From positions 1 through 32,000 of the forward strand of contig NC_014732.1 of assembly GCF_000172995.2 (NCBI RefSeq): a DNA stretch of 32,000 nucleotides, read 5' to 3'. This stretch comes from Halogeometricum borinquense DSM 11551. Lineage in GTDB: Archaea > Halobacteriota > Halobacteria > Halobacteriales > Haloferacaceae. Positions 5,622 to 30,113 of the stretch are shown here, piece by piece. The notes under the pieces are model-generated. The model ran no database searches and was not told the origin of the DNA. It saw only the letters and a list, made by a program, of their open reading frames with translations. The position numbers were made by a program, and so were the translations under genes. The first letter of the stretch is position 1, and each line of letters starts with the position of its first letter.

Positions 5622-5622
5622 G

Positions 5623-6489: not shown

Positions 6490-7347
6490 ATGACCGATGC
6501 CAGTCTGACGAGACGGCTTGCCCGTGCCGGATTCGAGGCGCTCGCTCGACTCGACGGTGCGACGAACGTCTCGCATCTGTACCCGGACGAGGCAAACGCC
6601 GTCCTTGCGTACCACGCTGTCGGTGAGCCTGCGGGTTACGGAAACATCTCCACCGACCGATTTCGTCGTGACCTCGACTACATTACCGAACACTTCACGG
6701 TAGGTGACCTGCCCGCAGTCCTCGACTCCTACGGTGGAAAACGCGTTGCACTCACGTTCGACGACGCGTACGACGACTTCTACGAGAACGTCCTCCCGCT
6801 ACTCCGCGAGTACAACGTCCCGGCGACGCTGTTCGTCCCAGTCGAGTTCGTCGGCGGTTGTCCCGACGACTACGCGTATCGATTCGCGCGGTCACCAATC
6901 GACCACGAATCGTTCAACGATCCGTCGTTATTCGACGGAGAGACCGTCCGCGGTCCGAGTATGATGTCGTGGGACCGGCTGAACGAGGTTGCGGCGGACC
7001 CGCTCGTCACCGTCGGCACCCACACGCGGACGCACCCGGACCTCGGCCGCATCCACGACCGGGAGACGCTGGAGTACGAAATCGTCGGTGCGAGAGACGT
7101 ACTCGAAGAGCGATTGGGCGTAGACGTTGACCGTTTCTGTTACCCGTACGGCCGGTACTCAGGCGAAGCGGTGTCAGTAGTGGAAGAATCACACAGATTG
7201 GCGGTTACCTCTCAGCACGGGGTCCTGATTGACATCGAAGCCGCTGACAGATATCGACTTCCTCGTGTGCGTGCGCATAAAGAGGAGCAGTACGTTCGAT
7301 GGGACCTCTCCGGACTCCGGTGGGAACTGACCGAGTTGGTCAGCTGA
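6490..7347 (+). CDS. Polysaccharide deacetylase (NodB homology domain, CE4)
   Basis: NodB motif 1 'ALTFDDAYDD', motif 2 'GTHTRTHPDL', and 'FCYPYGRY'. The ATG directly abuts the stop of the methyltransferase (taa|atg). Confidence 0.9.
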   Translation: MTDASLTRRLARAGFEALARLDGATNVSHLYPDEANAVLAYHAVGEPAGYGNISTDRFRRDLDYITEHFTVGDLPAVLDSYGGKRVALTFDDAYDDFYENVLPLLREYNVPATLFVPVEFVGGCPDDYAYRFARSPIDHESFNDPSLFDGETVRGPSMMSWDRLNEVAADPLVTVGTHTRTHPDLGRIHDRETLEYEIVGARDVLEERLGVDVDRFCYPYGRYSGEAVSVVEESHRLAVTSQHGVLIDIEAADRYRLPRVRAHKEEQYVRWDLSGLRWELTELVS

Positions 7348-7364
7348 TCGAAAAAGCAGCTCTG

Positions 7365-8378: not shown

Positions 8379-8383
8379 GTCGA

Positions 8384-8722
8384 TTACTCGCCCGTCATCC
8401 CGTCCGGAGTAGAGAACGCGGAGGCGTCCGGCAAGGAGGCCACGTCCGTGTTCACACCGCGGGACGTTGCAGTTGAAACCGATTCGTCGAATGCGTCGTT
8501 AGCTGGAGTTGTGAGTGAGAGCGAGTCGATAGCTGGAGTTGCGGTTGAGAGCGCGTCGATAGCGGGGGTTGGGGGTGAAAGCGAGTCGGTGGGTGGATAC
8601 TCTCGAAGTGTGCGGACGTGGCTGTCCCCGGTCGTGAAGATGACTTCCATCGTCCCGTTTTTATAGCTGTCCTCGTCCCCTCGTTGCGGTAATCGACCGC
8701 GGTCGTATCCTTGCATGAACAC
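8384..8722 (-). CDS. Small acidic hypothetical protein with 10-aa tandem repeats (xTPAIDxLSx)
   Basis: 112-aa ORF (GTG at 8722; internal ATGs at 8716 and 8650). It ends 5 nt before the GT2 start, on the same strand. It contains 'PPTPAIDALS TATPAIDSLS LTTPANDAFD', encoded by the 30-bp DNA repeat. The opposite strand is also open (8448..8666), so coding status is uncertain. Confidence 0.3.
   Translation of the reverse strand: MFMQGYDRGRLPQRGDEDSYKNGTMEVIFTTGDSHVRTLREYPPTDSLSPPTPAIDALSTATPAIDSLSLTTPANDAFDESVSTATSRGVNTDVASLPDASAFSTPDGMTGE
8491..8597. repeat. 30-bp direct tandem repeat, ~3.5 copies (~77-80% identity between neighbours)
   Basis: Units at 8491-8520, 8521-8550 and 8551-8580, plus a partial unit at 8581-8597. 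Example unit: gcgagtcgatagctggagttgcggttgaga. Identity counted by hand. Confidence 0.85.
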
Positions 8723-9166
8723 TACTCAGACCGCATCTCGTTTCGACAGTCGGTCAGCGGCGGTCAACACGGACCCCTGTGCGACCGAACTCTGCGCCGC
8801 GACCCGTCGCGCCCGTACACATTACGGTGAACACTGGGGAAAGGTATGGTTATACGGGATGAAACACCCGCACAATGGAACGGGTGTCTGGTTAGCCGCC
8901 GAAACAATCATCATCACCCCAGCATCGGTGTGCCAGTAGAGATTCAGTTGTCTCTCGCTATCGTCGCGCCCGAAACGATAGCGACTCCCGAAACGAAGGC
9001 CACCGAACCGTACCACAGACCCATTCTACCGCCTCGGTGTGTTACACTGCTAATAACCAAAGATGTCTTCAACGTTCACACAAAGCGTGATGTTCGTTCT
9101 CCGAGCAGTCCGCACAGGACGCAAAGATAAACCAGCGCGGCAGTCGCAACCGGGGGGCTGACAACC

Positions 9167-11038
9167 GTGTCTCCCTCACAGAGCCAACACGCTGACTCGA
9201 CGTCCCCACGCTGGACGAGAGTACTCCTCGTCGTCGGATTCCTCGGCCTTGCCGGTGGCGTCCTTACAGCACGGGCGGACCCTGCGACCGGATACGAAGT
9301 GTCAGTGTACGCGGCGACGCCGCCCGCATTCTGGGTCGGTATCATTGGCGCAGCAACCATCGGTACTGTCGTGGCACTGTTCGACCGCGATCTCGGTCGA
9401 ATCACCGGTGTCAGCCTCACAGGCCTGAGTACGGTATCGTTCCTCGCACTCCCGCTTTTCCGAGGATACTACTTCTTCGGGTCGGGCGACGCACTGACAC
9501 ATCTCGGCTGGGCAAAGCAGATGCTCGGTCCCGAGTTCGGATTCTTCGACCTCATCTATCCCGGCGGGCACTCACTCGGTGTGTTCCTCTCACAGACGAT
9601 GGGCGTCCCGGTCAGGTGGGGAATGATGTACGCGATGCTTACGATGTCGGTGCTGACGTTGCTTTTCGTCCCCTTGGCCGTGTGGGTAGTCGTGCGTGAC
9701 TCACGTGCGGTCATCATCGCGGCGTTCACGGCCATGCTGATGCTGCCGATCAACAACATCAGTACACACTCGCACTTCCACACGTACACGCTGACGACGC
9801 TGTACTTCCCGTTTGTTCTCTACTTACTGTTCAAGCATCTCACTCGTGACGCAGAAGACGTATCGCTTCCGAGTTGGACCGCAGCAACCAGCCTCGTCTT
9901 ACCAATCGCGCTGGCGGCGAACGTGTTCTATCATCCGCAGGTAGCGGTGAACGTCCTCATATTCATGGGAACCGTACTCGCGGTCGGTGTCGCGTGGCGC
10001 CGTCGCGTCCGTGTAACGCAGCCAGCGGCGGCGGACGGCGGGCAACGCCATCGACTGATACTCGGACAGGTCATCTTCCTCACGGTCCTCCTCGGGGTGT
10101 GGGCGACGCAGTACCAGCAGACGTTCACGCTGCTGAACAACGTCTACCTGTCCGCACAGGCGTTTCTGACGACTGGAACCGGTGCAGGACAGGTCGCCGC
10201 AGAGCGCGGGGGTTCAGCACAAGCAATCGGTGTCAGCCTCGTCGAACTGTTCGTCAAACTGTTCGCAGTCAACGCGCTGTACATCGCCTTGGCGGCCGGT
10301 TTGGTGGCCGCGCTAGTGTTCGGGATGATCCAGAATCGATCCGACAGCGACATGGCCGTGACCTACATCGGCTTCTCTGCGCTGACGCTCGGACCGTTTT
10401 TCGCCGTGCAGTTCATCGGCGACGTGTCAGGGTACTTCTTCCGGCACCTCGGATTCGCCATGGTTCTCGTCGGTATCGTCGGCGCAATCGCGCTCTATCA
10501 CCTCTCTGATACGCTCCAAGACACAATTAGAGGACGGAGGAAGGCTATCGTCGCGGTACTCACCGTGGCTGTGCTGTGTCTCTCGCTCGCAGCGTACTTC
10601 CCCTCGCCGTACATCTACAACCCCTCGCCGCAAAGCCCCGAACAGCAGTTCGTCGGCTACGACACCACCTTCGAACACCGGGCGGAAGGGGCCGCCGTGG
10701 CGGGCATTCGATCAGGTCCGGGGCGCTTCAGCGACGCACTGAACGACGACTTCGACCCCCGTCTGATGTGGACGCTGTCTGGAGAGCAGTTCAACAGTGC
10801 AGAGAACGTGACGCAGTTCAGGCAGTACTCGTATTCGGAGCAGCCGTTTTACTATCTCGTGGTATCCGAAAAAGACAAAGACCGCGAGTTGGACGCGTTT
10901 CGGTCGCTTCGATACCAAGAAGCAGACTTCGAACGCATCACGGACGGGGGCGAATCCGCGAATCTCACAGATCCACACGAACGGTGGGTTCGACGCCTAC
11001 TACGTCAATCAGCGCGGGAACTCACTGGAACCGCCTGA
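9167..11038 (+). CDS. Polytopic membrane protein (~13-14 TM) with ~160-aa C-terminal soluble domain; family unknown (candidate GT-C-type transferase or Wzy-like polymerase)
   Basis: 623-aa ORF with GTG start. Many hydrophobic segments read by eye, for example WTRVLLVVGFLGLAGGVLTA, WGMMYAMLTMSVLTLLFVPLAVWVVV and FAVNALYIALAAGLVAALVFGMI. Loop 'RGYYFFGSGDALTHLGW'. The hydrophilic C-terminus starts at ~'YFPSPYIYNPSPQ'. No WWDXG motif. Confidence 0.85.
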   Translation: MSPSQSQHADSTSPRWTRVLLVVGFLGLAGGVLTARADPATGYEVSVYAATPPAFWVGIIGAATIGTVVALFDRDLGRITGVSLTGLSTVSFLALPLFRGYYFFGSGDALTHLGWAKQMLGPEFGFFDLIYPGGHSLGVFLSQTMGVPVRWGMMYAMLTMSVLTLLFVPLAVWVVVRDSRAVIIAAFTAMLMLPINNISTHSHFHTYTLTTLYFPFVLYLLFKHLTRDAEDVSLPSWTAATSLVLPIALAANVFYHPQVAVNVLIFMGTVLAVGVAWRRRVRVTQPAAADGGQRHRLILGQVIFLTVLLGVWATQYQQTFTLLNNVYLSAQAFLTTGTGAGQVAAERGGSAQAIGVSLVELFVKLFAVNALYIALAAGLVAALVFGMIQNRSDSDMAVTYIGFSALTLGPFFAVQFIGDVSGYFFRHLGFAMVLVGIVGAIALYHLSDTLQDTIRGRRKAIVAVLTVAVLCLSLAAYFPSPYIYNPSPQSPEQQFVGYDTTFEHRAEGAAVAGIRSGPGRFSDALNDDFDPRLMWTLSGEQFNSAENVTQFRQYSYSEQPFYYLVVSEKDKDRELDAFRSLRYQEADFERITDGGESANLTDPHERWVRRLLRQSARELTGTA

Positions 11039-11249
11039 GAAAACGACCAGTTAACTTGCTTTTAAACGGGGTGAGTCGTCTCCGTTTCACCTCTCGTAGG
11101 GTCTGCAACGGAGTATTTATTCGACGGCCATCGTCGTACACGCACCTCTGTGATGTCGTGCAGGCGCGACAGTAGCCGCAGTGAGTTTCAGCACAGTACC
11201 GTGTAACTGCCTCATTACTATATCTTCAAGAGACACCAGTTGGTCTATA

Positions 11250-12305
11250 ATGCGGGCGACAGACGTTCTGTTAGTTGGACCAGCCGGTACGACCGGTGGT
11301 ATCGCGCAGTATATCCAAGAGCAACGCCGTCGCCTCCCTCGGAGCGTCTCCGCTCGAACCTACGACGTTTCCGTCCCGACGAGCGACTCGATCCGAGCGT
11401 TTGCCGTGGCGATACTCCTCGCGTTCGTGCAGATACTTCGCTTCCCGTTCAGACGCCGACCGGACGTGGTTCACGTCCACTCCAGTCACTGGAACTCGTT
11501 CTACCAGTCGGGTCTGTACGTTCTCCTCGCGTCTACAATCTGGCGCGTCCCCGTCGTCCTCCATATCCACGGGTCGTCGTTCGACTCGTTCATGCAGACG
11601 GAGTCGAAGCCGGTTCGCCTCTTTCAGTCGGTCGTTTTCTCGCAGTGTGACAGAGTCATCGTCCTCTCGGACTACTGGCGAGACATCGTCGGCGTCCGGG
11701 CCGCAGAGGAGAAAATAACCGTCCTCCCGAACGCCGTCGATCCCGACGAGTACGACCCGCGATACGATGCGTCGCCGCCGCATCTCGTCTTTATTTCGAA
11801 CCATATCGAACGCAAGGGCATCAAAGAGCTCGTCGAGGCCGTAGACACGCTGATGCGGAACGACGAGAACTGCCGTGTCACTATCGGCGGGAGCGGTCCG
11901 CTGTCGCACCTCGCAGCAGATATCGCGGAGCGACACGAACGGGTGAGCTACGAAGGATACGTCTCCGAGGAGCGGAAACGTGAAATCTTGAACGATAGCT
12001 CAATGTTCGTGCTACCCACGTACGCCGAAAATCTCCCCATCGCACTGTTAGAGGCGATGGCGGGCGGGAACGTGCTCGTCTCGACGACGGTCGGTGCGAT
12101 CCCCAGCCTCATCAACGATGACAACGGCGTCCTCGTCGAACCGGGCAACGCGACGGCGCTGGCGGCGACGCTGTCAGACCTCGTTCACGACCCAGAGCGC
12201 GTCGAACAGATGGCACAGACGAGTCGGGAGCGAGTCGAACAAAACTATTCGTGGGCCGTCGCCACCGAGCGACTCGACGACCTCTACCGCGAACTCGCGC
12301 ACTGA
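11250..12305 (+). CDS. GT4-family (GT-B, Glycos_transf_1) glycosyltransferase
   Basis: 'VHVHSSHW...VVLHIHGS' in the N-domain. C-domain 'VLPTYAENLPIALLEAMAGGNVLVSTTVGAIP' carries the E-x7-E motif. I place the start at the ATG at 11250 (MRATDVLLVGPAG). A TATA-like 'ttactatat' sits at 11215-11223. Confidence 0.9.
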   Translation: MRATDVLLVGPAGTTGGIAQYIQEQRRRLPRSVSARTYDVSVPTSDSIRAFAVAILLAFVQILRFPFRRRPDVVHVHSSHWNSFYQSGLYVLLASTIWRVPVVLHIHGSSFDSFMQTESKPVRLFQSVVFSQCDRVIVLSDYWRDIVGVRAAEEKITVLPNAVDPDEYDPRYDASPPHLVFISNHIERKGIKELVEAVDTLMRNDENCRVTIGGSGPLSHLAADIAERHERVSYEGYVSEERKREILNDSSMFVLPTYAENLPIALLEAMAGGNVLVSTTVGAIPSLINDDNGVLVEPGNATALAATLSDLVHDPERVEQMAQTSRERVEQNYSWAVATERLDDLYRELAH

Positions 12306-12476
12306 CAGACGACGGCGACCGACGAGTGCGGCCTCGGATCAGCAATAACTATCTTGATTGGTCGGCCATAAACACCCTGACCGTAGACGTTCGAACGGCA
12401 GTGAAACCGGCGTGAAGCATACCCTAACCTGGAATACAGCCCATAACTAAGCGTTAACCGAGACGAGACAGACTCG

Positions 12477-14072
12477 GTGAACGATACGTATGATGAAACT
12501 CGCCGAGCGTTCGTCTTGGGCCTCGACGGAGTTCCGTGGGGACTCCTCGAACGCCTCGTGGACGACGGCGAGTTACCGAACTTCGAACGCCTCCTGAACG
12601 AGGGAGCGTCGGGCCCGCTCCGGAGTACGGTTCCCGCGAACACGCCCGTCGCATGGCCCTCCATCGCAACGGGGACGTGGCCCGACAAGCACGGACTGTA
12701 CGAGTTCATGAAACTCAATGCCGCGTACAAGCAGTCGCCGTACTCCAGCGCGGACATCGATCAACCACCGCTCTGGGAACTCGTCTCTCCGTCGGTTGTC
12801 GCCAACGTCCCGATGACGTATCCGACGAGCGACCCCGGCGAAGACAGCGGCATCGTCAGCGGTATGATGACACCGCAGATAGATGGTGCGGCCGTCAATC
12901 CAGACTCGCTTCGCTCGGAATTCGACCGTCGGCTCCCGGATTACGAGATCGACATCAAATGGCGCGACTACGCGGGACGCAAAGCGGAGTTCCTTCGGGA
13001 TCTCGAAAACGTCCTCGACGGTCGTCGGCAGTTGATGGAGATGCTCATGGAGAACGAAGCGTGGCGACTGTTCTTCTTCGTCTACGTCGCTCCCGATAGA
13101 CTCCAGCACCTCATTTGGGACGAGGAAACGCTCCGTGAGCACTACGGGAAACTCGACGAAATCCTCGGTGACGTAATGGCGTACTGTGAGGAGCGCGATT
13201 CGAATCTCTACGTGGTCTCCGATCACGGCTTTGCGCCCATCGAGAAAGTCATCAGTGTCAACCGGATTCTCGCGGACGAAGGGCTGTTAACCGTCAAAGA
13301 CAGCGACGGGACGCGCGGTGCGCTATCGAGTATCGGGCTGAACAAAGCGCGCGTGCAGAGTGCGCTAAAGAGCGTCGGAATCACGGACGAAAAGCTAGTC
13401 CGGAGCCTGCCAAAGTCCGTTGTGGACTTCTTCGCAGAACGCATCCCCGGCAGTCACGGACTGTACGACGTGGAGTTCGACCGGACGGACGCCTTCCTCC
13501 ACGGCCTCGGAAGCGTCTACATCAACGACACCGAGCGATTCGAACAGGGGACCGTCCCGCCGACGGCCGTCGAACGGACGAAGTGCGAGGTCATAGGCGT
13601 TCTCGAAGCGGCGACGGACCCCGAAACGGGAGACTCACTGCTCACCGTCCACGACGGGGACGAACTGTTCCCAAATGATCCAGAAGCGCCGGATATCGTG
13701 GTCGAAGCAAAGGACGGCTATCACGTCGAACCGAAACTCGGAGAGCGCGCAGTCGAACCTGCGACGGATATCGCCGCGTACCATCGGCCGGAAGGCATTT
13801 TCTTCGCGTGGGGTGACGACGTTCGCTCCGGTGCGACAGTCGAAGACGCCGAGGTCGTGGACGTGGCACCGACAGTTCTCCACTCGCTCGGACAGGAGAT
13901 CCCCGAGATGGCGGATGGTCGAGTTCTCGCAGAGATGTTCCGGTCCGACTCCGAACCGGCGACGACCGCCGTCCAGACGGGGCGGTACGCGAAACGCGAG
14001 GGTGCAAAAGCAACGGAGACGGACACCGAGACGGTCGAGGACCGGCTTCGCGGACTCGGGTATATGGAGTGA
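12477..14072 (+). CDS. Alkaline-phosphatase-superfamily type I phosphodiesterase / nucleotide pyrophosphatase-like enzyme, cytoplasmic
   Basis: 'AFVLGLDGVPWGLL', 'STVPANTPVAWPSIATGTWPDKHG' (Thr nucleophile context as in NPP/PF01663) and 'VVSDHGF'. GTG start at 12477. No signal peptide. C-terminal tail 'VEDRLRGLGYME'. Confidence 0.85.
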   Translation: MNDTYDETRRAFVLGLDGVPWGLLERLVDDGELPNFERLLNEGASGPLRSTVPANTPVAWPSIATGTWPDKHGLYEFMKLNAAYKQSPYSSADIDQPPLWELVSPSVVANVPMTYPTSDPGEDSGIVSGMMTPQIDGAAVNPDSLRSEFDRRLPDYEIDIKWRDYAGRKAEFLRDLENVLDGRRQLMEMLMENEAWRLFFFVYVAPDRLQHLIWDEETLREHYGKLDEILGDVMAYCEERDSNLYVVSDHGFAPIEKVISVNRILADEGLLTVKDSDGTRGALSSIGLNKARVQSALKSVGITDEKLVRSLPKSVVDFFAERIPGSHGLYDVEFDRTDAFLHGLGSVYINDTERFEQGTVPPTAVERTKCEVIGVLEAATDPETGDSLLTVHDGDELFPNDPEAPDIVVEAKDGYHVEPKLGERAVEPATDIAAYHRPEGIFFAWGDDVRSGATVEDAEVVDVAPTVLHSLGQEIPEMADGRVLAEMFRSDSEPATTAVQTGRYAKREGAKATETDTETVEDRLRGLGYME

Positions 14073-14092
14073 CCCACCGGGATCGATGGCGA

Positions 14093-15691
14093 ATGACACG
14101 CGACGACAGTCGGACGTTCACGCGTCGTCGTCTCCTCGGTCTCCTCGGAAGTGCGGGCGTCGCCTCCCTCGCAGGATGCGGCGGGCGTGACACGACGCCG
14201 ACAGCAACCCCGGAGAAACCCGGTCCATTCAAGCAAACGTCGGACAGTCCCGATGAAAATCCGAGGATGCGGGACGGAATCGGGTTCGACCGCGTAGTGA
14301 ACGCGGTCGATGACCTCAGCTGGGATCCGAGCGGTGAAGAAGCGATAGACGACTCATTAGATCAGACTCTCCGCGAAGGGACGCTTATCGAAGTTCCGCC
14401 GGGCACGTACCGCGTCAAGCGGCGGCACGACGTCGAAGGCGTCTCCAGATGGGGAATCGTCGGAATCGGAACGAACCGGCGGGCCGTGCAGTTTACGCCT
14501 CCAACAGGCCGATCGTTCCGCTGGCTAATGGTCGATGGCGGGAGTGACATCCTCATCAAGAACTTCACCATGCAACAGGGTCGCAAGTTCGACCGGTCCA
14601 TCGGGATGGGTTTTCTCGTCGACGATGGACTCAAACTGTACAACGTCGAGAAGGCCGGATCGAACCCGCGGGAGAACTCCGGGTCCGGCGCGGAGAACGG
14701 TATCGTCGTTCAGGTAACGAAGCCCGACGGCGTCGCCGTCGTCGATACGTTTGTCCGCAAAGGACCGCAGGACTTCGCACACTACCCCGGTAACGCCATC
14801 ACCGTATTCACCGGCCGCGGGCACCTCGGGACAGTGTACTATCGAAACCTCCACATCGAGAACGGCGGCGAACACGGTATCTACGCCTCGAAAGGACAAG
14901 GAAACGTCCGCGTCGAAGGCGGGTTGTTCAAGAACAACCTCGGGGACGGCGTCCGAATCGCCGGAGAGGGATCATGGGTGAAAGGTGCCACCGTCGTCAT
15001 CGACATGGACGACCGGACTCCCGGAAACCGGGGGAACTGGCACCAAGCAAGAGGAATCCACCTACAGTCGGGCGAGTACGGTTACACCGGCGGACTGGTC
15101 GAAGACTGTACGGTTATTGCACACGCGTCGCCGCGGACAGAAGCCCTCCTAAAGATAGAACACAGCCAAGGAGCTGCGACAGTCAGAAATTGTCGCTTCT
15201 TCAATAATACGGATTACCGTACAATCGTCGTAGACAAGCCGGCGACAGGCCCCCAACAGCCGAAAAAGCCGTGGGAGGTGACGTTCGAGAACATCGAAAT
15301 ATCCGGTCGTGCGTCGAACACCGTTGCGATGCTTCTCGAAGACCGCCCCGGTTCGAAGATTTCGAACGTGACGATTGACCTACCGAGTGTCGGCGTAGAC
15401 GGAATCGTCCTCAACAACTGCGAAGGGACCGTCATCGACAACATGAACGTCGTCACAGGGGGCTATCCCCTGCGAGTGTCGAGTAACAGCGACGGAGAGC
15501 AGTGTCTCGTGACACTCAAAAACCTCCGTCGTCTCAAGTCGTCGCTGCTGTCCGACGCTGATACGGAACAACTCGCAAGTTCGCTCTCGGGGTCCACTTG
15601 TCTGGATGGGAACGACACAGCGAAGCAAACGTTCGCCGTGATCGGCGCAAACGACGACCGCCTCTACGGGACGGTTCTCGACGAGCAGTAA
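14093..15691 (+). CDS. Tat-exported lipoprotein with right-handed parallel beta-helix (pectate-lyase-3-like) domain; paralog of the next gene
   Basis: 'MTRDDSRTFTRRRLLGLLGSAGVASLAGCGG' is a twin-arginine signal plus lipobox. N-terminal motif 'FDRVVNAVDDLSWDPSGEEAIDDSL...GTLIEVPPGTYRV'. PbH1-like repeats (IKNFTM, YRNLHIENGGEHGIY, FKNNLGDGVRI, VEDCTVI, VRNCRFFNN, LNNCEGTVIDNMNV). An alternative GTG at 14069 overlaps the upstream stop (GTGA). Confidence 0.85.
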   Translation: MTRDDSRTFTRRRLLGLLGSAGVASLAGCGGRDTTPTATPEKPGPFKQTSDSPDENPRMRDGIGFDRVVNAVDDLSWDPSGEEAIDDSLDQTLREGTLIEVPPGTYRVKRRHDVEGVSRWGIVGIGTNRRAVQFTPPTGRSFRWLMVDGGSDILIKNFTMQQGRKFDRSIGMGFLVDDGLKLYNVEKAGSNPRENSGSGAENGIVVQVTKPDGVAVVDTFVRKGPQDFAHYPGNAITVFTGRGHLGTVYYRNLHIENGGEHGIYASKGQGNVRVEGGLFKNNLGDGVRIAGEGSWVKGATVVIDMDDRTPGNRGNWHQARGIHLQSGEYGYTGGLVEDCTVIAHASPRTEALLKIEHSQGAATVRNCRFFNNTDYRTIVVDKPATGPQQPKKPWEVTFENIEISGRASNTVAMLLEDRPGSKISNVTIDLPSVGVDGIVLNNCEGTVIDNMNVVTGGYPLRVSSNSDGEQCLVTLKNLRRLKSSLLSDADTEQLASSLSGSTCLDGNDTAKQTFAVIGANDDRLYGTVLDEQ

Positions 15692-15874
15692 GACGCCGAC
15701 CGAACCGACAATTACAGTCGGCATATCTCTTCTGATCTGCAGTTAATGCTTGATTAACGCATTTTCAGACCGTCTACGCACACACCGTGCTGTTTGTCAC
15801 ACTATGCCAAATGTGCCGGGAGAAGCCGGAACAGGTAAGTAAACGCTCCGTTAGAATCGGTTATGTAGATGAAA

Positions 15875-15895
15875 ATTAGATATTCAAGATCTAAT
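15875..15895. promoter_or_regulatory. Inverted repeat ATTAGAT-n7-ATCTAAT in the AT-rich upstream region; candidate regulator binding site
   Basis: The 7-bp arms (15875-15881 and 15889-15895) are perfect reverse complements. Located ~100 nt upstream of the ATG at 15983. Confidence 0.35.
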
Positions 15896-15954
15896 GAAAG
15901 TCGCTATATTTTTGGTATTATTCCTAACTAATACGCCATGGAATAATCGATGCA

Positions 15955-15962
15955 TTTAATAT
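15955..15962 (+). promoter_or_regulatory. TATA-like box TTTAATAT ~25 nt upstream of the ATG at 15983 (leaderless-type promoter)
   Basis: It lies in a ~140-nt stretch (15841-15980) that I count at 44/140 = 31% G+C, against visibly GC-rich flanking coding sequence. Confidence 0.45.
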
Positions 15963-15982
15963 CTTAAGCTGAGTCTAAACAG

Positions 15983-18577
15983 ATGTCCATGGCAGAACAA
16001 CCTGCAAACAGCCCGAACGACGCGGGCGCTGAAAACACTGAGAACCAATCTGACGACACAAAACTGCTCGGCCGCCGTGACGCCCTGAAACTAGGTGCTG
16101 CGACTGCTGCTGTCGCCGCCGGTGCGGGCGCTGCAACCACAACGGCTACCGCTGCAATCGAACGCGAAGGCGTAACGTTCGACCGCGTGGTGAACGCGGT
16201 CGATGACCTCGGAATGGATCCCAACGGAAACGACCGGATCGACAGCAAACTCGAAGACGCACTCAGTCCGGGCACGCTCATCGAGTTCCCCGCGGGGACG
16301 TACAAGATAGCGAGCAAGCAAGTCCTTGAAGACCGTACGGGCATCGTCGGTATCGCCGACGACCGCTCGAAAGTTCGGTTCGTTCCCCCGCAGGGGAAGG
16401 GCATGCGCTGGATCAACTTCGGTAACGTCGCCGGTGCGGTTCTGAAGAACTTCACCATCGACCGACTGGACGACTATGACACCACGGTCGGGATGGGCGG
16501 GAACATCAAGCGCAACTTCGTCCTGAAGAACGTCGAGTACGACGGCTGGACCCCGACGGGTCCGCAGATGTTCGCGGCGAACGTCACCGACTCCGACGGG
16601 ACGGCAGTCGTAGACGGTCTCTACCGGACTGGTCCGACAGAGTTCCAACACTACCCCAAATCCTCACTAGACATCTGGTCGGGTCGCGGCCACGAAGGCC
16701 ACATGGTGCTGCGGAACATCGAGATTCACAACGGCTCCGAATCCGGAATCTACACCGGAAAGGGGAACGGAACCTACCTCATCGAGGACGGATACTTCAA
16801 GAACGTCGTCCACACGGCAGTTCGCGCCGCCGGCCGCGACTCGACGGTCCGAAACTGTACCATCGTGATGGACACGGAAGACTGGGACCCCCGCAACGAG
16901 AAAGTCGAGTCCACCTACGACGACGGCGAACCCATCCAGCTCAACCGGGCAATCTGGGCGCAGACGAACGACAAGCAGTTCTCCGGTCCCGTCATCGAGG
17001 ACTGTGACATCATCATCAAAAACACCACTTCGACGGCGCTCGCCGGGATCTATGTCAACTTCGATACCGGCGGCGCAAAGATTCGCAACACACGTATCCA
17101 GTGTGACTCCGGTCACGTCATCCCCATCTACGGACAGAGCCCGACCAACGAGGCGGGCGAACCGATCGAGATGGAACTCGACGGCGTGAGCGTCACTGGG
17201 TCCGCGTGGGACAAGGCCGCGATGTACTTCGAGGACCGTCCCAACTCGGTCATCCGCAACTGCTGTATCCAATCATCGAACAACAACGACGGCGTCCTGC
17301 TCGACAACTGTGACGGATCGACCGTCGAGAACACGAACATCAACGTCGGCGGTCGGGCAACGACGTTCAAGAACGGGAGCGTCTCCACCTCGTCCATCAC
17401 GTCGAGCGACAGTTGTCCGCTCCCTTCCCTGCCGAGTTCGACGCCGAGCGACGGCACGCCCTCGACCGGGGACGGATCCGGCGGATCGGACGATTCATCG
17501 AGCTACGACCTCCCGTACCGCTTCAAAGTCGAGAGTACGGGCGGCGGCAAGACGGAGTTCACCGTCTCGACCAGCGGGACGATGAAGCCCGCCTCTGACG
17601 CCGAAGGCGTCGTCGAGAACAACACGGTTTCCGACAGAGTCGGCCCGGAATCCGGCGTCGATAGCTACCTGTACGAAGGCTACGTCACGGACTTCTCGGT
17701 GACCGGCGGCGAGCATGCAAACTACTACATCGAAACGTCCGACGGGTCGAAGTCGGTGCAGGTGTCACCCGAACTCCTCTCGGCGAACAGGTTCGTCGTC
17801 AAGAGTACCGGCGGCGGCGTGGCGTCGTACGACGTGACTGTTGACGGCGAAATCGTCCGCGGAGCGTGCGGACTTGAGGATACGGTTGACGGCCAAACGG
17901 CTTCCGGCCGCGTCGGTCCCGACTCCGGAATAGACGCGTTCCACTACACCGGGAGCATCACCGACCTTACGTTCGACGGTGCCGAGTACGCGACGGTCAC
18001 GGTCAACGGCAAGGAAATCGACCCGAACCAGTACGGTGAGGGCGATTCGACCAGCGACCTGCCGAACTCGCTCACCATTTCCGGAACGGGGACCAATTCG
18101 ACGTACACGGTCACTGTCTCCGAAGATATCGATGTCTCTCCGGACGAGACGGACGACATCTCGGGTAACATCTCGACGAAGAGTGCGGAAGGTGCCGTCA
18201 CCGATGGCGAGGATAAGTACGTCTACGCCGGTGAAATTACGGACTTCACGCTGAACGGGGACGCGAAAGTCTTCGTCAACGGGAACGAAGTTGACCCCGC
18301 GACGCTCGGCAGCAGCAGTCTGCCGAACACGCTCGTCGTCGATGGGACTGGCAGTGACGCCGCGGGAACCTACACGGTCTACGTCTCCGGCGACATCGAG
18401 GCTGCCCCCGACCTGACCGTCGCGGGTGAGAGCAACTCACTCGACAGCGTCGAGGACAAGGTGTTCGACGGGAAAATCGCCGGTGTCGTCAAGACTGGGA
18501 AGGACGGATACCGCTTCTCCGGCGACATCACGAAGATGGAAATCAACGGTGACGCGGTGGTGAACCTCGGGCAGTAA
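15983..18577 (+). CDS. Tat-secreted right-handed beta-helix protein with Ser/Thr/Pro linker and four C-terminal tandem modules; no membrane anchor
   Basis: 'LLGRRDALKLGAATAAVAAGAGA' is a Tat signal without a lipobox Cys. Residues ~61-465 are colinear with the upstream paralog (FDRVVNAVDDL, GTLIEFPAGTYKI, LKNFTI, GRGHEG, RNIEIHNGSESGIY, FKN, IEDCDII, FEDRPNS, LDNCDGSTVENTNINVGG). Linker at 17378-17515. Four repeats run to the C-terminus, which ends ...VVNLGQ. Confidence 0.9.
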   Translation: MSMAEQPANSPNDAGAENTENQSDDTKLLGRRDALKLGAATAAVAAGAGAATTTATAAIEREGVTFDRVVNAVDDLGMDPNGNDRIDSKLEDALSPGTLIEFPAGTYKIASKQVLEDRTGIVGIADDRSKVRFVPPQGKGMRWINFGNVAGAVLKNFTIDRLDDYDTTVGMGGNIKRNFVLKNVEYDGWTPTGPQMFAANVTDSDGTAVVDGLYRTGPTEFQHYPKSSLDIWSGRGHEGHMVLRNIEIHNGSESGIYTGKGNGTYLIEDGYFKNVVHTAVRAAGRDSTVRNCTIVMDTEDWDPRNEKVESTYDDGEPIQLNRAIWAQTNDKQFSGPVIEDCDIIIKNTTSTALAGIYVNFDTGGAKIRNTRIQCDSGHVIPIYGQSPTNEAGEPIEMELDGVSVTGSAWDKAAMYFEDRPNSVIRNCCIQSSNNNDGVLLDNCDGSTVENTNINVGGRATTFKNGSVSTSSITSSDSCPLPSLPSSTPSDGTPSTGDGSGGSDDSSSYDLPYRFKVESTGGGKTEFTVSTSGTMKPASDAEGVVENNTVSDRVGPESGVDSYLYEGYVTDFSVTGGEHANYYIETSDGSKSVQVSPELLSANRFVVKSTGGGVASYDVTVDGEIVRGACGLEDTVDGQTASGRVGPDSGIDAFHYTGSITDLTFDGAEYATVTVNGKEIDPNQYGEGDSTSDLPNSLTISGTGTNSTYTVTVSEDIDVSPDETDDISGNISTKSAEGAVTDGEDKYVYAGEITDFTLNGDAKVFVNGNEVDPATLGSSSLPNTLVVDGTGSDAAGTYTVYVSGDIEAAPDLTVAGESNSLDSVEDKVFDGKIAGVVKTGKDGYRFSGDITKMEINGDAVVNLGQ
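17516..18574 (+). repeat. Four tandem protein-domain repeats (~83-93 aa each) within the secreted beta-helix CDS
   Basis: Modules start at nt 17516, 17786, 18065 and 18326. The opening strand recurs as 'xRF/LxVxS/GTGG..Y.VTV'. The closing motif is 'G.D.Y.Y.G.ITDF/L.x.G', seen as YLYEGYVTDFSVTGG, FHYTGSITDLTFDGA, YVYAGEITDFTLNGD and YRFSGDITKMEINGD. Confidence 0.85.
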
Positions 18578-18691
18578 CACCGCAGCCACGGACACCTACG
18601 CCCTACCCGCGTCGAGTTCCCGCACTCAGTCGGGATGATACGACTGAACTGAGAAACACGTTCGACGCCCCTTCACTATTTTGCGGACGCG

Positions 18692-18937
18692 TTATTCCAT
18701 GTAGCCGAGCGATTTGAGGCGACTCTCGACCTCCCGTTCGTCAACCGATTCGTACTCGTCGTCGCTCGCGTCTTCGACGCGCGCGAGAACCTCTTCGAGG
18801 ACGTAGGCAACGTACTCGTCGGACGTATCGAAGTTCGACCGGGGAAGGCGGCCCTCGATTCGGTCAAGGATGTGGACGGGAAGCGAAACCTCGCGGGTGT
18901 CGCTCTCGGAAAGAGAATCGCTCGTGTTCGTGTTCAT
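18692..18937 (-). CDS. Small acidic protein with putative ribbon-helix-helix (CopG-like) N-terminal half and LGYME C-terminal tail
   Basis: 81 aa from the ATG at 18937 (the track ORF starts at an upstream TTG). 'REVSLPVHILDRIEGRL..SDEYVAYVLEEVLARV' fits a strand-helix-helix pattern. An acidic linker follows, then 'EVESRLKSLGYME'. Divergent from the sulfatase-like gene. Confidence 0.55.
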   Translation of the reverse strand: MNTNTSDSLSESDTREVSLPVHILDRIEGRLPRSNFDTSDEYVAYVLEEVLARVEDASDDEYESVDEREVESRLKSLGYME

Positions 18938-19109
18938 ACTGACCAATGTAGCCGTTCGTTGGAGAACAGCGCGGTTTGTTATAGACCGGCTACGGGTACC
19001 GCGACCGGCAAATCAGTCGAGCAGCGCAACGACACTCACGCCCGGTTGCCAGACGGCCATCACGGGTACACGCGGCATAACAAAACCCCGAAAGCGGGTA
19101 CTGCGATGC

Positions 19110-20345
19110 ATGACTGACATGCGTGATGTCGTCCTCGTCACTATCGACAGCTTCCGCACCGACCGGTGCGGTTTCCTCGGTAGTGACGACGGACTCACAC
19201 CGGCGATGGATCGCCTCGCCGCGGATGGCCTCGTCTTCGAGAACGCCGTCGCACCCGCCGGAGCGACGAGCGGATCCTCCTCGACGTTCTTCACCGGGCG
19301 CTACCCAATCGAGCGTTCGACTGCGGAAGACCGCAAAGCGGTGATGCGACAGAATCTGAAAGCCGGCCGAACGCTGCCCCAGCAGTTCAAAGATATGGGC
19401 TACCGAACTGCCGGATTCACCGCGAATCCGTGGACCTCACGGTTCTTCGGCTATGATGCCGGATTCGACCACTTCGAGGACTTCATGGACGGTGATCTGA
19501 CCAGCGACACCATCGAAAAAGGCGACCGCGGCGGGACCTTCTCAGACCTCACCAGTCAGTTGCTCAACTGGTGGCAGGGACAGGACATGTACATGTCGTG
19601 GGACGCCTACTACGACCAGATACTCGACTGGTTGGACGAAGCGCGGGAGGGCGACGAACCGTTCTTCCTGTGGATATTCTTGGTTGACGTTCACATGCCG
19701 TATCTCCCGCCGAAAGGCTATCGGTCCCAGTCCTCCGCCGCCGCCTACGCCGCCAACGCGTGGTTGTTCGGCGGCGCAAAGCAGAATACTCCGTTGTCGG
19801 GACTACTTCACGACCGACTGCTTCGGGCCTACGACGACACGGTTCGCTTTACCGACGAGTTCGTGGACCGAATCGCGCGAGCGGTAGACGACGACACCGC
19901 CCTCTGCGTTCACGCCGACCACGGCGAGTCGTTCGGCGAGCGCGATGGACACTACGGCCACGGCTCCCTCTACGAGGAGACAGTTCGCGTCCCGCTCTTC
20001 GTGGCTAACCACCCCCAAGACCGAATCAAGCGACCGTTTTCTCTCGCCGGATTGCCAGCTCTCCTGACCCGGTTGGGTCGCGGTGAGACGGTCGACGACT
20101 CTATCGCTCACCCCATCGTCACCAGTCGGAACAACGACGGCTGGCGCGTCGCCCACGGTGGGTCGTGGCGCTACACCCGCCGACCCGAAGGCGAATCGGT
20201 CGAGACAGCCGATGGCGACCCGATAGACGACGAGGAACTGTACGATATCGGACAGTCGGTGATAGACCACGAAATCGAGGCCGAAGAAGAGCGACGGCGT
20301 GTGATCGATGCCGCCGTCGAAGTAACCGAATCCGGGCCGCTCTGA
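19110..20345 (+). CDS. Sulfatase-family (alkaline phosphatase superfamily, PF00884-like) hydrolase/transferase lacking the formylglycine motif; cytoplasmic
   Basis: 'VVLVTIDSFRTDRCG', 'ATSGSSSTFFTGRYP' (Thr in place of the C/S-x-P-x-R Cys), 'FLWIFLVDVHMPY', 'VHADHGESFGE' and 'YEETVRVPLF'. Start is the ATG at 19110 (alternative at 19119). No signal peptide. Confidence 0.85.
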   Translation: MTDMRDVVLVTIDSFRTDRCGFLGSDDGLTPAMDRLAADGLVFENAVAPAGATSGSSSTFFTGRYPIERSTAEDRKAVMRQNLKAGRTLPQQFKDMGYRTAGFTANPWTSRFFGYDAGFDHFEDFMDGDLTSDTIEKGDRGGTFSDLTSQLLNWWQGQDMYMSWDAYYDQILDWLDEAREGDEPFFLWIFLVDVHMPYLPPKGYRSQSSAAAYAANAWLFGGAKQNTPLSGLLHDRLLRAYDDTVRFTDEFVDRIARAVDDDTALCVHADHGESFGERDGHYGHGSLYEETVRVPLFVANHPQDRIKRPFSLAGLPALLTRLGRGETVDDSIAHPIVTSRNNDGWRVAHGGSWRYTRRPEGESVETADGDPIDDEELYDIGQSVIDHEIEAEEERRRVIDAAVEVTESGPL

Positions 20346-21581: not shown

Positions 21582-23096
21582 GTGAGCCGACTCCGTGCCC
21601 TTCTCCGTCGTCTCGTTCCCAGCGGTGGGACTGCAGAACGCGTCGTCAAGAGCGCCATCTGGGCGATGGGACAGAACGCGTTCGGTCGCGTCCTCCAGTT
21701 GGCGATGCTCGTCGTCCTCGCGCGTCTCATCGGCCCGACGCAGATCGGCCTCGTTGGGGTCGCACTACTCGCACTGAGCGGAATTAAGAAGTTCACAAAC
21801 GTCGGATTGGACGCCGCGCTCGTCCAAGACGAAAACGAGGACGTGGACGAACACCTGAACACGGTGTGGATACTCGAAATCGCTCGCGGGGCGATCATCT
21901 CGGGGCTGTTGGTCCTCGCCGCGCCGTTCATCGCACAGATCCTCGGGGACGGCAACATCCAGAGTACGACGACACTGATTCAAGTTATCGCCCTGTCCCC
22001 GCTCCTTCTGGGCTTCAAGAATCCGGGGATGGTCTACTTTCAGAAAAATCTCGACTTCCACAAACGGTTCGTCTACCGAGTCAGCGGCGACGTGGTACAG
22101 GTGATTGTTGCTATCGCGTGGGCACTCGTCAGCCCCACGGCGATGTCGTTAGTCGCGGGGTACGTCGCCGCCGACTTCCTTCGTCTCGTCCTGTCGTACC
22201 TCCTCCACGACTTCCGGCCGAACCTCAGCTTCAGCCGGGAGTCCGCAAACGAACTCATCAACTACGGCAAGTGGATAACCGGGTCGTCGATTCTCTACTT
22301 CCTCTACAGCGAGGGTGACGACGCTTTCGTCGGCGCGTTCATCGGAGCCGCACCGCTGGCGTTCTATCAGTACGCGTACCGCTTTTCGAACGCGCCCGCG
22401 ACCGAGCTGACGAGCGTCATCTCAAGCGTCATGTTTCCGGCGTTCTCGAAACTACAGGATGACACCGAACAACTTCGTAACACGTTCAAGAAAACGCTCC
22501 GCGTGAATGCGTTCATCTCAGCGCCCGTTGCTTTCGGAATCGCTGTCGTCGCGCCGGACTTCGTGATGGTTGCCCTCGGCGAGGAGTGGATGACGATGGT
22601 TCTTCCGATGCAGATACTCGCCATCTACGGGTTCCTTCGCGCTCTCGGGCAGACGTTCGGTCCCATCTGGAAGGCGCTCGGTCGGCCGGATTTACTCACG
22701 AAACTGGGTACGCTCCGTGTCATCCTCATCGCACTCACGATCTATCCGGTGACGGTAACGTGGGGGTACGGCATCGCTGGCACCGCCGCGGTCGTCACGG
22801 CAATCTACGTCTTCCCGATGATGCCAATCGACATCTATCTCACCGCGAAGATGCTCGAAATACACCCGTTCGAAACGGTGCGCGAAATCGGCTTCCCCGT
22901 GCTGGCGAGTGCGATCATGGCGGGAGTGGTCTGGTACATCAACTCGATTGTCCAACTGCCCGCCATCGCAGAGTTAGTCATCGGCATCGTCGTCGGCGCG
23001 GCCACCTACTTCATGGTGGTGGCTCTCCTCGAACGCCAGTTCCGCTGGGGCATCGGCCAGAACATTCAAGGAATCGTCGCAAACGCCCGTCGCTGA
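21582..23096 (+). CDS. Oligosaccharide/polysaccharide flippase (Wzx/RfbX-like, MOP superfamily)
   Basis: 504 aa with GTG start. Multi-TM protein with N-terminal 'KSAIWAMGQNAFGRVLQLAMLVVLARLIGPTQIGLVGVALL', typical of polysaccharide biosynthesis (Wzx) proteins. Confidence 0.88.
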   Translation: MSRLRALLRRLVPSGGTAERVVKSAIWAMGQNAFGRVLQLAMLVVLARLIGPTQIGLVGVALLALSGIKKFTNVGLDAALVQDENEDVDEHLNTVWILEIARGAIISGLLVLAAPFIAQILGDGNIQSTTTLIQVIALSPLLLGFKNPGMVYFQKNLDFHKRFVYRVSGDVVQVIVAIAWALVSPTAMSLVAGYVAADFLRLVLSYLLHDFRPNLSFSRESANELINYGKWITGSSILYFLYSEGDDAFVGAFIGAAPLAFYQYAYRFSNAPATELTSVISSVMFPAFSKLQDDTEQLRNTFKKTLRVNAFISAPVAFGIAVVAPDFVMVALGEEWMTMVLPMQILAIYGFLRALGQTFGPIWKALGRPDLLTKLGTLRVILIALTIYPVTVTWGYGIAGTAAVVTAIYVFPMMPIDIYLTAKMLEIHPFETVREIGFPVLASAIMAGVVWYINSIVQLPAIAELVIGIVVGAATYFMVVALLERQFRWGIGQNIQGIVANARR

Positions 23097-23194: not shown

Positions 23195-24589
23195 ATGCCA
23201 CGCGATATCGTCTGGATAACACTCGAAAGCGTTCGGCAGGACCACACGTCGCTGGATGGATACCGCCGCGACACAACACCGTTTTTGCAGTCGTTGGCCG
23301 ACCGGTCGGATGGTGCGACGTTCAAACACTGCTTCTCGCACGACGTGTGGACTCGCGCGTCGAGTGCGTCGATCCTCACCGGGCTTGCATCATCGTCACA
23401 CCGGACGTGGACGCAGGAAAATCGGCTGTCGAGTGACGTCCCGACGATTCCCGAGGCGCTTCAACGAACCGACTACCGAACAGCCTGTGTCTCGCCGAAT
23501 CCGCAGTTAAGCGAGGTAACGGGTCTCGCCCGCGGATTCGACCACTTCCATTACCTAGGTAAGGACACCCTTCTCGACGAGGCGGGCGTTTTGACTGTCC
23601 TCGGCTACCTGACGAAACTCAACCAGCACTCCGCAGGCTACACGACGGACACCGCAAAGCACTCCGTCGGGTACGTTAGCGACGCCATCGCGCGGCGGCA
23701 CATCCGCGAGGCGGCGCAAGCAGACGAGGACCTGTTTCTCTACGTCCATCTCGGCGACAGCCACCACCCGTACTATCCGCCGAAGCCGTACCAAGACCTG
23801 TTTGCGGATGGATTCGAGATGTCCGTCGGCGAATCGCTCGACCTCGTGCTGGAGATGTCCTCGAATCTGCACGGCTATATCGCTCGCGGCGTTCCGTTCA
23901 CCAATGATGAGTGGAACGCCCTGCAGGCGATGTATGACGCGACCATCCGCTACGTGGACGACACGGTTCGGAGCATCGTCGAGTGCGCTGAAAACCGATT
24001 GAATGACCCCATCGTAGTCGTCACGTCCGACCACGGCGAACTGTTCGGCGAACAGGAGATGCTCGCACACATGGTCGTCGCCGACGACGCCGTCTCGCAC
24101 GTCCCCCTCGTCGTCTGTGGAATCGAGGCTGTCGAGAGCCACAACGGCGTCGTCCAACACGCCGACGCGATGAAGACGGTCCTCAACGAAGTCGGCGTCG
24201 AGTTCGAGGTACCCATCGGCTACGACCTCCGCGAACAGGACCGCGAGTTCGCCGTCACGCAACGCAGCGGCGTCCGGTGTGCGAGCAAACTCGACATGAT
24301 TGGAGAGCGAGACGACGCCTTCGACGCCTCGTCTTATCATGTGGGTGACCTAACGAGTCTTCGAACGCTCGACCACCGTTACCAGCAAAGTGAGTCCGGC
24401 GAGGACCTGTTCGCCGTTCCCGATGGGGTGAGCGACGTGAGCGAGGAGCGATCCGACGTGTGCGCCGAGTTAGCCCAGAAATGCGAATCGTGGCTCGACA
24501 GCTACGGCCTGCCGGAGTCCGAACGGGAAGAACAAGCCGAGTTCGACGATTCGATGACCTCGCACCTCGAAGACCTCGGGTATCTCTGA
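23195..24589 (+). CDS. Sulfatase-family (alkaline phosphatase superfamily) hydrolase/transferase lacking the formylglycine motif; cytoplasmic; LGYL C-terminal tail
   Basis: 'IVWITLESVRQDH', 'VWTRASSASILTGL' (Thr at the Cys position), 'LFLYVHLGDSHHPY' and 'VVTSDHGELFGE'. No signal peptide. Ends '...DDSMTSHLEDLGYL'. Confidence 0.85.
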   Translation: MPRDIVWITLESVRQDHTSLDGYRRDTTPFLQSLADRSDGATFKHCFSHDVWTRASSASILTGLASSSHRTWTQENRLSSDVPTIPEALQRTDYRTACVSPNPQLSEVTGLARGFDHFHYLGKDTLLDEAGVLTVLGYLTKLNQHSAGYTTDTAKHSVGYVSDAIARRHIREAAQADEDLFLYVHLGDSHHPYYPPKPYQDLFADGFEMSVGESLDLVLEMSSNLHGYIARGVPFTNDEWNALQAMYDATIRYVDDTVRSIVECAENRLNDPIVVVTSDHGELFGEQEMLAHMVVADDAVSHVPLVVCGIEAVESHNGVVQHADAMKTVLNEVGVEFEVPIGYDLREQDREFAVTQRSGVRCASKLDMIGERDDAFDASSYHVGDLTSLRTLDHRYQQSESGEDLFAVPDGVSDVSEERSDVCAELAQKCESWLDSYGLPESEREEQAEFDDSMTSHLEDLGYL

Positions 24590-27590: not shown

Positions 27591-27605
27591 CCGAACGCGT
27601 ACTGA

Positions 27606-30109: not shown

Positions 30110-30113
30110 GACA

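Follow-up and report, generated by a model that had tools for sequence, protein, structure and literature searches.

Predicted Lipid-Anchored and Secreted Beta-Helix Proteins as Candidate Glycan Processors in a Halogeometricum borinquense Glycan Island

Haloarchaeal exopolysaccharides (EPS) are acidic and often sulfated, and haloarchaeal surface glycans are elaborate. Two adjacent genes of Halogeometricum borinquense DSM 11551, here called A (14093-15691) and B (15983-18577), lie on the same strand in a glycan island within the first 32,000 nucleotides (nt) of contig NC_014732.1 (assembly GCF_000172995.2; this whole stretch is the window, in which positions are counted). Both encode beta-helix proteins with export signals, A as a predicted lipoprotein and B as a predicted secreted protein. 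On balance, we favor the reading that A and B process the glycan of a Wzx-type pathway (EPS or capsule-like) at the cell surface, by cleaving it. Residue numbers follow A unless B is stated, and feature coordinates are collected in Table 1.

A paralogous pair of exported beta-helix proteins

A and B are paralogs. The original prediction read them as colinear over about 400 amino acids (aa), and BLASTP aligned 408 aa at 37% identity and 54% positives (E = 5e-80), a similarity that far exceeds chance; the blocks named as shared (FDRVVNAVDDL, GTY, KNFT, GRGH, GIY, FKN, EDC, and EDRP) all occur in both proteins, in the same order. Among H. borinquense proteins, one of 532 aa matches A at 97% identity, and P0038, whose annotation starts at Met3 (862 aa), matches B at 100%.

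The fold is certain from modeling and profile matches, and it is the right-handed parallel beta-helix that had been proposed. PF13229 (Beta_helix; cutoff, 25.9 bits) matched A at 30.8 bits and B at 25.9 bits, exactly at threshold. The AlphaFold2 (AF2) model of A, built from a 38-sequence alignment, had a predicted local distance difference test score (pLDDT) of 85.1 and a predicted template modeling (TM) score of 0.86, with residues 1 to 50 disordered and a continuous all-beta body from about residue 58 to 529; the helix of B is deduced from its 37% identity to A over the whole domain. Foldseek matched the A model to beta-helix carbohydrate-active enzymes and tailspikes at probability 1.0 (E, 1e-4 to 1e-3; TM-score, 0.2 to 0.5), among them glycoside hydrolase (GH) family 28 exopolygalacturonase, GH87 glucanase, the Vibrio polysaccharide (VPS) lyase RbmB, the AlgE4 A-module, FdlA fucoidan lyase, phi29 gp12, HK620 tailspike, and the adhesin PfbA. 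In a viral structure library, the top matches were tailspikes and tail proteins named "pectate lyase superfamily" (best E = 8e-7). These structural matches are generic, and although the fold is certain, no known family is close. No relevant match to A or B was found by sequence among all PDB chains, an NCBIfam scan of both gave no meaningful match, and the family profile reached only the N-cap motif of the putative pectin lyase 7chu (E = 7e-4). That match agrees with the earlier comparison of the N-terminal block to the pectate-lyase-3/tailspike opening motif, as does a sub-threshold match of the N-terminal block only of B (17.8 bits; threshold, 27 bits) to PF12708 (Pect-lyase_RHGA_epim, formerly Pectate_lyase_3). 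A gave no PF12708 match at E<=0.1, precomputed PF12708 matches exist for some orthologs, and the relationship of the pair to this family appears marginal.

Twin-arginine translocation (Tat) is the default export route in haloarchaea, and both proteins carry twin-arginine signals (TRRRLLG in A, GRRDALKLG in B), as had been noted. The N terminus of A, TRRRLLGLLGSAGVASLAGC, combines a twin-arginine motif, a hydrophobic stretch, and a lipobox with Cys (LAGC), the features of a haloarchaeal Tat-dependent lipoprotein; lipidation itself is predicted from sequence. The twin arginine and [LVI]AGC are present in all A-type orthologs, which agrees with the membrane anchoring proposed for A. B-type orthologs keep the twin arginine without a lipobox, and B would be cleaved between ATA and A after its residue 57. 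B had been described as lacking both Cys and a C-terminal anchor. Hydropathy predicted no transmembrane segment or C-terminal anchor, and none of its Cys lies within the signal peptide, but the protein has 8 Cys elsewhere, so the first part stands for the signal peptide only. The split into anchored and released forms is conserved across the family.

The family is large: in an exhaustive search, 1,629 clusters matched its profile at E<=1e-3, 603 of them at E<=1e-30, whereas a word-indexed search recovered only 37 to 49 relatives. When one genome per species was scanned with pattern seeds, 45 loci emerged, all from Halobacteria, in about 20 genera; because the scan relies on two peptide patterns (taken from a 12-sequence alignment), the taxonomic range and locus counts are lower bounds. 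Among 215 sampled members (mean identity, about 25%), 107 are Tat secreted with C-terminal modules, 48 are Tat lipoproteins with twin arginine and lipobox, 31 are Tat secreted without modules, and 29 have no signal peptide. Literature searches found no characterized haloarchaeal member. The Haloferax volcanii "pectin lyase domain protein" HVO_2081 has a Sec signal and is not a known member.

A short lipoprotein and a long module-bearing secreted form occur together in about 17 loci from at least six genera or groups (Halogeometricum, Halogranum, Haloferax, Halorubrum, Natronomonas, and unclassified Haloferacaceae), ordered as A-B adjacent, B-A adjacent, or B and A separated by about 4 kb. A neighbor-joining tree built from the helix domain places A in a clade of 24 sequences, all lipoproteins and from several genera, and B with its own orthologs; A is 44 to 45% identical to Halorubrum lipoproteins, versus 37% to its neighbor B. 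From these clades and identities, the duplication is placed before the divergence of these genera, with both copies retained.

Evidence bearing on glycan cleavage

Three family members from metagenomes (P0095, P0154, and P0047) carry a PF05426 Alginate_lyase domain after the helix (E values of 1e-33, 2e-31, and 2e-16 among the three). In P0154 (1547 aa), the usual modules are preceded by three copies of another repeat type, each about 130 aa long, and another member, P0050, has Laminin_G_3 and PKD domains.

Viral relatives come from one 19-kb metagenomic contig, L004 (Logan SRR32481257), together with related signal-less proteins, and the viral link rests on these. The contig holds a halovirus tail module with a tape measure gene (phrog_28, E = 5e-57); four genes downstream of it is P0031 (804 aa, no signal peptide, E = 1.8e-58 to A), with a BNR sialidase-like gene and another member of the family next to it. 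The viral copies are 37 to 39% identical to A by tblastn and have virion-attachment regions instead of signal peptides; their clade adjoins cellular P0088 and P0094 in the tree (41 to 53% identity). From its gene content, a virus of the L004 type may carry up to three glycan-active tail proteins. The contig also encodes an HNH endonuclease. No PHROGs family was assigned to A, to B, or to their viral homologs, and a tblastn search with A gave no match in 50,697 phage records.

With tailspike depolymerases, A shares real halovirus homologs and a PF12708-type N-cap. The viral copies differ in attaching to virions, whereas A and B are chromosomal, exported, and syntenic with biosynthesis genes. 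This bears on the idea that A and B are domesticated tailspike genes which trim a halovirus-receptor glycan or act as decoys, with defense as their main role. The viral homologs are as close to A as is its paralog B, the viral clade nests by P0088 and P0094, and haloarchaeal glyco-islands are regarded as foci of the arms race between viruses and their hosts (PMC4535781). However, orthologous A and B genes have been inherited stably in different genera, in synteny with biosynthesis genes, while defense genes are typically patchy, and neither the PHROGs scan nor the phage-record search found anything for A; we regard a primary defense role as very improbable.

The conserved residues of the helix lie on three successive coils (Y264, N281, N282, R288, S294, and D304). 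Across the 215 sequences, R288 and N281 are each conserved at 99% and D304 at 93%; D304 is the one conserved carboxylate of the helix body, and the family has no conserved His. Position 264 (nt 14882-14884) is Tyr in 191 of the 215 sequences and Arg in the other 24, with no other residue. Both residues can serve as a lyase general acid, and the exchange of one for the other may distinguish a subfamily that differs in chemistry or substrate. GH28 enzymes carry NTD, DD, GHG, and RIK motifs and a conserved catalytic Asp cluster; in A and B, PF00295 gave no match at E<=0.1, and a GH28-type site is unlikely because only one carboxylate is conserved. The name "glycosyl hydrolase family 28-related" given by NCBI to the ortholog P0040 is unsupported by GH28 features. 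As judged from the alignment, the conserved Arg, Tyr/Arg, Asn, and single Asp are a better fit to a lyase (beta-elimination) than to a GH28 hydrolase. Beta-helix lyases use a Lys or Arg base and a Tyr or Arg acid (PMC12993940), and R288 with Tyr/Arg264 is compatible with this scheme; no Pfam polysaccharide-lyase (PL) family matched A or B, and the comparison is one of sequence conservation. In beta-helix lyases generally (PL1/3/6/9, RbmB, and FdlA), water may also be the acid, the charge of the uronate carboxylate is neutralized in the PB1 groove, and the products are 4,5-unsaturated.

B adds a linker and tandem modules to its helix. The Ser/Thr/Pro linker and four modules described earlier were recovered by self-alignment and AF2, which modeled residues 508 to 864 of B as four separate all-beta sandwich domains of about 85 aa (pLDDT, 88.3); TSxxSCPxP, in the cap between helix and linker, is conserved among B-type consensus sequences. 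Foldseek of the four-module region returned nothing significant, with weak hints of carbohydrate-binding module family 2 (CBM2) and chitin-binding domains (probability, <=0.5), and its global scores are meaningless because the query is multidomain. Single modules had no Pfam match, and to call them carbohydrate binding is a guess. With the B modules as query, a second haloarchaeal beta-helix type, shorter at about 300 aa (P0218, P0219, and P0221) was found to carry the same modules; its core motif in common with the A/B family is VE..F..NN....FR[IL]G..GS.V.....V.D.

This layout had been likened to that of the AlgE epimerases, which raises the possibility that A and B modify rather than cut the polymer: the anchored A would epimerize uronates at C5, or otherwise modify the emerging chain, and the secreted B would act in the matrix. 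The AlgE4 A-module (PDB 2pyg/2pyh) is a beta-helix catalytic module with the best target-normalized TM-score among the top matches of A (0.54), secreted AlgE forms have tandem C-terminal modules, and AlgG and AlgE provide envelope and secreted enzyme forms for one polymer, paralleling the anchored/secreted duality here. Lyases and epimerases share proton abstraction (cited in PMC12993940), with which the conserved Arg and Tyr are compatible. The likeness ends at the active site and the modules. Rozeboom and colleagues reportedly described in 2008 a catalytic DPH(D/E) motif in the AlgE A-module, where Tyr, Asp, and His are conserved; neither A nor B contains a DPH motif, and because this motif and a conserved His are absent from the family, an AlgG/AlgE-type site is unlikely. 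AlgE R-modules are Ca2+-binding repeats-in-toxin (RTX) beta-rolls, whereas the modules here are beta-sandwiches of about 85 aa, and B has no GGxGxD. Pfam and NCBIfam scans found no AlgG/AlgE-type family, and the viral tail homologs and lyase fusions favor cleavage over epimerization. Helix plus tandem modules is therefore what remains of the AlgE comparison, and we consider an epimerase-like role quite unlikely.

Several observations weigh against cleavage altogether. The structural matches of A are generic (low TM-scores) and include the nonenzymatic adhesin PfbA; no significant CAZy-type Pfam family or PDB enzyme was matched beyond the N-cap motif; literature searches found no enzymatic or genetic data for any family member; and N281 and N282 may be structural residues of an asparagine ladder. 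Haloferax EPS contains uronic acids and sulfate, and uronic acids in the island glycan are deduced from that EPS and from lyase fusions elsewhere in the family, not from this locus.

A and B could instead be noncatalytic surface proteins, that is, beta-helix lectins, adhesins, or a matrix scaffold serving as glycosylated cargo or binding partners of the island. Besides the PfbA match, the helix body has few conserved acidic residues, N-X-S/T sequons number 4 in A and 11 in B, and WceF, a stewartan-cleaving enzyme compared below, too aggregates with its polymer (PMC7949094). The cell-wall island of Haloquadratum walsbyi encodes pectin-lyase-fold proteins that have been read as "variable surface proteins", and homologs of halomucin-2 (PMC4535781). 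Like A and B, they are haloarchaeal, extracellular, and associated with a glycosylation island, with a pectin-lyase fold/parallel beta-helix; they differ in size (1260 to 3072 aa) and in their other domains (PapD-like, peptidase, and invasin/Ig), and the comparison is by description only. Yet R288, N281, and D304 stay near-invariant in 215 divergent sequences, which looks more like an active site than a lectin surface, family members are fused to alginate-lyase catalytic domains, and homologs sit in a viral tail module, where such domains are usually depolymerases. A noncatalytic role is accordingly judged unlikely. The extracellular glycan-remodeling or depolymerizing role first suggested for the pair thus gains indirect support from the fusions and the halovirus tail homologs, but enzymatic activity itself is only inferred.

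Linkage to glycan loci and proposed role

The window encodes a Wzx-type flippase, three glycosyltransferases of family 2 (GT2) and one of family 4 (GT4), two sulfatase-family proteins, a DUF354 protein, a GFO/IDH/MocA oxidoreductase, an FkbM methyltransferase, a polysaccharide deacetylase, and a HAD hydrolase. It also encodes a polytopic membrane protein of 623 aa, here the 10-TM protein, which had no Pfam, NCBIfam, or PDB match and could be an unrecognized archaeal Wzy-like polymerase, a ligase, or a GT-C enzyme.

Homologs of A and B had been expected near glycan genes, and neighborhood profiling found them there. When proteins of the window were searched by tblastn against 48 cellular loci with a family member, counting homologs within 10 kb, the most frequent neighbor was the 10-TM protein (26/48 loci), followed by GT4 and the sulfatase (19/48 each), the flippase (18/48), the GT2 at 25319-26362 (13/48), and DUF354 (9/48). 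Independent look-ups with precomputed Pfam labels gave the same glycan-gene neighborhood; with these and the neighbor counts, linkage to glycan loci is a property of the family.

The gene directly upstream of A encodes a phosphodiesterase/alkaline-phosphatase-family protein (PF01663), to which A had been described as translationally coupled, through either a GTGA overlap or a 20-nt gap. Both arrangements exist in the sequence: the stop codon of the PF01663 gene overlaps the alternative GTG start of A in GTGA (14069-14072), and the ATG at 14093 follows after 20 nt. The gap is the likelier, because A orthologs start at the ATG, with a shared MT(R/D)D (MTRD.../MTDD...). The linkage is not conserved, however; a PF01663 homolog is present in 3/48 loci, so the coupling is a local Halogeometricum feature outside the system.

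Immediately past the A stop codon, the spacer between A and B contains a GCCGAC...GTCGGC hairpin, and a TATA-like TTTAAT (15955-15960) lies 28 nt upstream of the B ATG; these could act as terminator and promoter. Because the spacer is 291 nt long at 41% GC, A and B are probably transcribed separately, B from its own promoter, and A would be the last gene of a GT4-phosphodiesterase-A unit.

In the processing role that we favor, A and B would fold in the cytoplasm and exit via the Tat pathway. A would be lipidated at Cys29, which would hold its tailspike-like beta-helix on the outward side of the membrane near the flippase and the 10-TM protein, the latter possibly the polymerase or ligase of the pathway. 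B would be cut by signal peptidase and released, with its modules probably keeping it attached to the polymer or the envelope. The groove of the beta-helix would bind an acidic glycan of the cell itself, one that probably is sulfated and contains uronates, and would cut it, probably through beta-elimination. Near the membrane, A would set chain length or release chains, and further out B would serve in matrix remodeling, dispersal, or release. Substrate, cleavage chemistry, chain-length role, and module function are all inferred.

The helix domain of A has a near-neutral charge (-1.5 per 100 aa; Halogeometricum orthologs, -0.2 to -1.5), against a family average of -5 to -6. Exported haloarchaeal proteins are normally acidic, unlike this domain (14264-15502). 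Attachment to the membrane surface or to a polymer with strong negative charge could explain this. A trait of the lipoprotein class was rejected as the explanation of the near-neutral charge, since only Halogeometricum orthologs are nearly neutral and the class mean (-4.9 per 100 aa) is close to that of the secreted forms.

Bacteria are known to encode, within a biosynthesis cluster, an exported beta-helix enzyme that acts on the product of that cluster; WceF and RbmB are the closest analogs of A and B. WceF of Pantoea stewartii, whose structure is presumably PDB 6TGF, has no detectable sequence similarity to A or B and lay outside the top 50 Foldseek matches. It is a Tat-exported, tailspike-like protein of the stewartan cluster that cleaves stewartan, and its knockouts make longer chains (PMC7949094). 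A and B share with WceF a Tat signal, a right-handed beta-helix, and a Wzx/Wzy-type EPS cluster, in which WceF acts on its own polymer; an exported beta-helix encoded in a biosynthesis cluster is the feature that they have in common with the WceF-like EPS-trimming class. The Tat likeness carries less weight, given the default use of this route in haloarchaea. WceF differs in that it comes from a bacterium and is encoded by one gene, without a lipoprotein partner or tandem modules. It forms a trimer whose N- and C-terminal domains are tailspike-like; the models built here are of monomers.

RbmB of Vibrio cholerae (PDB 9ozd/9ozl) is a VPS lyase with a role in matrix dispersal (PMC11637428, PMC12993940) and the 5th structural match of A (Foldseek, E = 1.4e-4). 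It too is a right-handed beta-helix encoded in a matrix gene region, it cleaves its own EPS by beta-elimination, and, as proposed here for A and B, it uses basic residues, not a carboxylate pair (PMC12993940). RbmB is about 370 aa long without modules, and its base, Lys227, is activated by Glu253 with Ca2+ assistance; the A/B family has no conserved Lys at the Lys227 equivalent, its invariant basic residue being R288, and no sequence-level relation between RbmB and A or B was found.

Relative to these bacterial systems, what is new is the archaeal setting and a helix family that, by sequence, has no place in any described GH or PL family. New as well are an ancient, maintained pairing of predicted lipid-anchored and secreted forms, a non-RTX module type of about 85 aa, a common ancestry with halovirus tail proteins, and a recurrent unannotated 10-TM partner. 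To our knowledge, the Wzz/Wzc-type chain-length regulators of bacteria seem absent in archaea. Only tentatively do we suggest that the Halobacteria-specific family is a new PL or glycosidase family shared by haloviruses and their hosts, that the anchored/released pair with the 10-TM protein provides archaeal chain-length control and matrix remodeling, and that the modules are a new carbohydrate- or envelope-binding domain. The family supplies testable candidates for chain-length setting, for cell exit from the matrix, and for halovirus penetration enzymes. If active, A and B would represent a new CAZy family working at saturating salt and the first archaeal case of a biosynthesis cluster encoding its own depolymerase (as for alginate, Psl, Pel, VPS, and stewartan), and they would offer tools for tailoring haloarchaeal EPS and mapping halovirus receptors.

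Feature coordinates and other genes of the window

Table 1. Features of genes A and B, neighboring genes in the window, and the halovirus contig (aa, amino acids; ORF, open reading frame)
Feature	Position	Strand	Basis
DUF7537 protein, begins MARTALHITVAVLVLLAGC, lipobox-type signal	1267-2061	+	Sequence
FG-GAP repeat protein without obvious signal peptide	4482-5621	+	Also present close to family members in 3 further loci (L003, L005, L023)
10-TM protein, 623 aa, >=10 predicted transmembrane helices and ~150-aa soluble C-terminal domain	9167-11038	+	Hydropathy
PF01663 phosphodiesterase/alkaline-phosphatase-family protein, predicted cytoplasmic	12477-14072	+	Pfam, E = 2e-44; no transmembrane segment or signal peptide predicted
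Gene A, predicted Tat lipoprotein with right-handed beta-helix, 532 aa from ATG	14093-15691	+	ORF
Alternative GTG start of A, giving 540 aa	14069-15691	+	ORF
A signal peptide: TRRRLLG (R11-R13, nt 14123-14131), lipobox LAGC (nt 14168-14179, Cys29)	14093-14179	+	Sequence
A beta-helix body, residues ~58-470	14264-15502	+	PF13229, AF2, Foldseek, conservation
Conserved core, Y264 to D304	~14882-15004	+	215 sequences
A-B spacer, 291 nt, 41% GC	15692-15982	.	Sequence, composition
Gene B, predicted secreted Tat substrate (beta-helix, linker, four modules), 864 aa	15983-18577	+	ORF
B Tat signal peptide: GRRDALKLG (RR at nt 16073-16078), Ala-rich h-region, no lipobox	15983-16153	+	Sequence
B beta-helix body, residues 61-457 of B, colinear with A	16163-17353	+	BLASTP to A, PF13229
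B helix-cap end and Ser/Thr/Pro/Gly/Asp-rich linker, conserved SCP motif (nt 17411-17419)	17354-17503	+	Sequence
B module 1, small beta-sandwich, residues ~508-600 of B	17504-17782	+	AF2, self-alignment
B module 2, residues ~601-686 of B	17783-18040	+	AF2, self-alignment
B module 3, residues ~687-778 of B	18041-18316	+	AF2, self-alignment
B module 4, residues ~779-864 of B, ends in family-wide DGYRFSGDITxxxxxGDA	18317-18574	+	AF2, self-alignment
Sulfatase-family (PF00884) proteins, two, no signal peptide	18870-20345 and 23195-24589	+	Pfam, sequence
Wzx-type flippase (Polysacc_synt_3)	21582-23096	+	Pfam, E = 2.5e-74
Beyond the island, unrelated: amidohydrolase, enoyl-CoA hydratase, HTH_10/BAT regulator, two PaaA/PaaC-family phenylacetate catabolism genes	26400-32000
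Halovirus tail module, contig L004 (Logan SRR32481257; positions of that contig)	1-19002; family members 7647-10061 and 14137-15918

The window has about 61% G+C, with HTH_10 regulators and acidic proteins typical of Halobacteria. Because of its lipobox-type signal, the DUF7537 protein is a predicted surface lipoprotein of the island. Both PF00884 proteins are presumably cytoplasmic, as they have no signal peptides, and each may be a sulfatase or a phospho- or sulfo-transfer enzyme; the ORF at 18870-20345 probably has its true start about 80 codons further in, at MTDMRDVV.... The glycan island seems to end near 26.4 kb.

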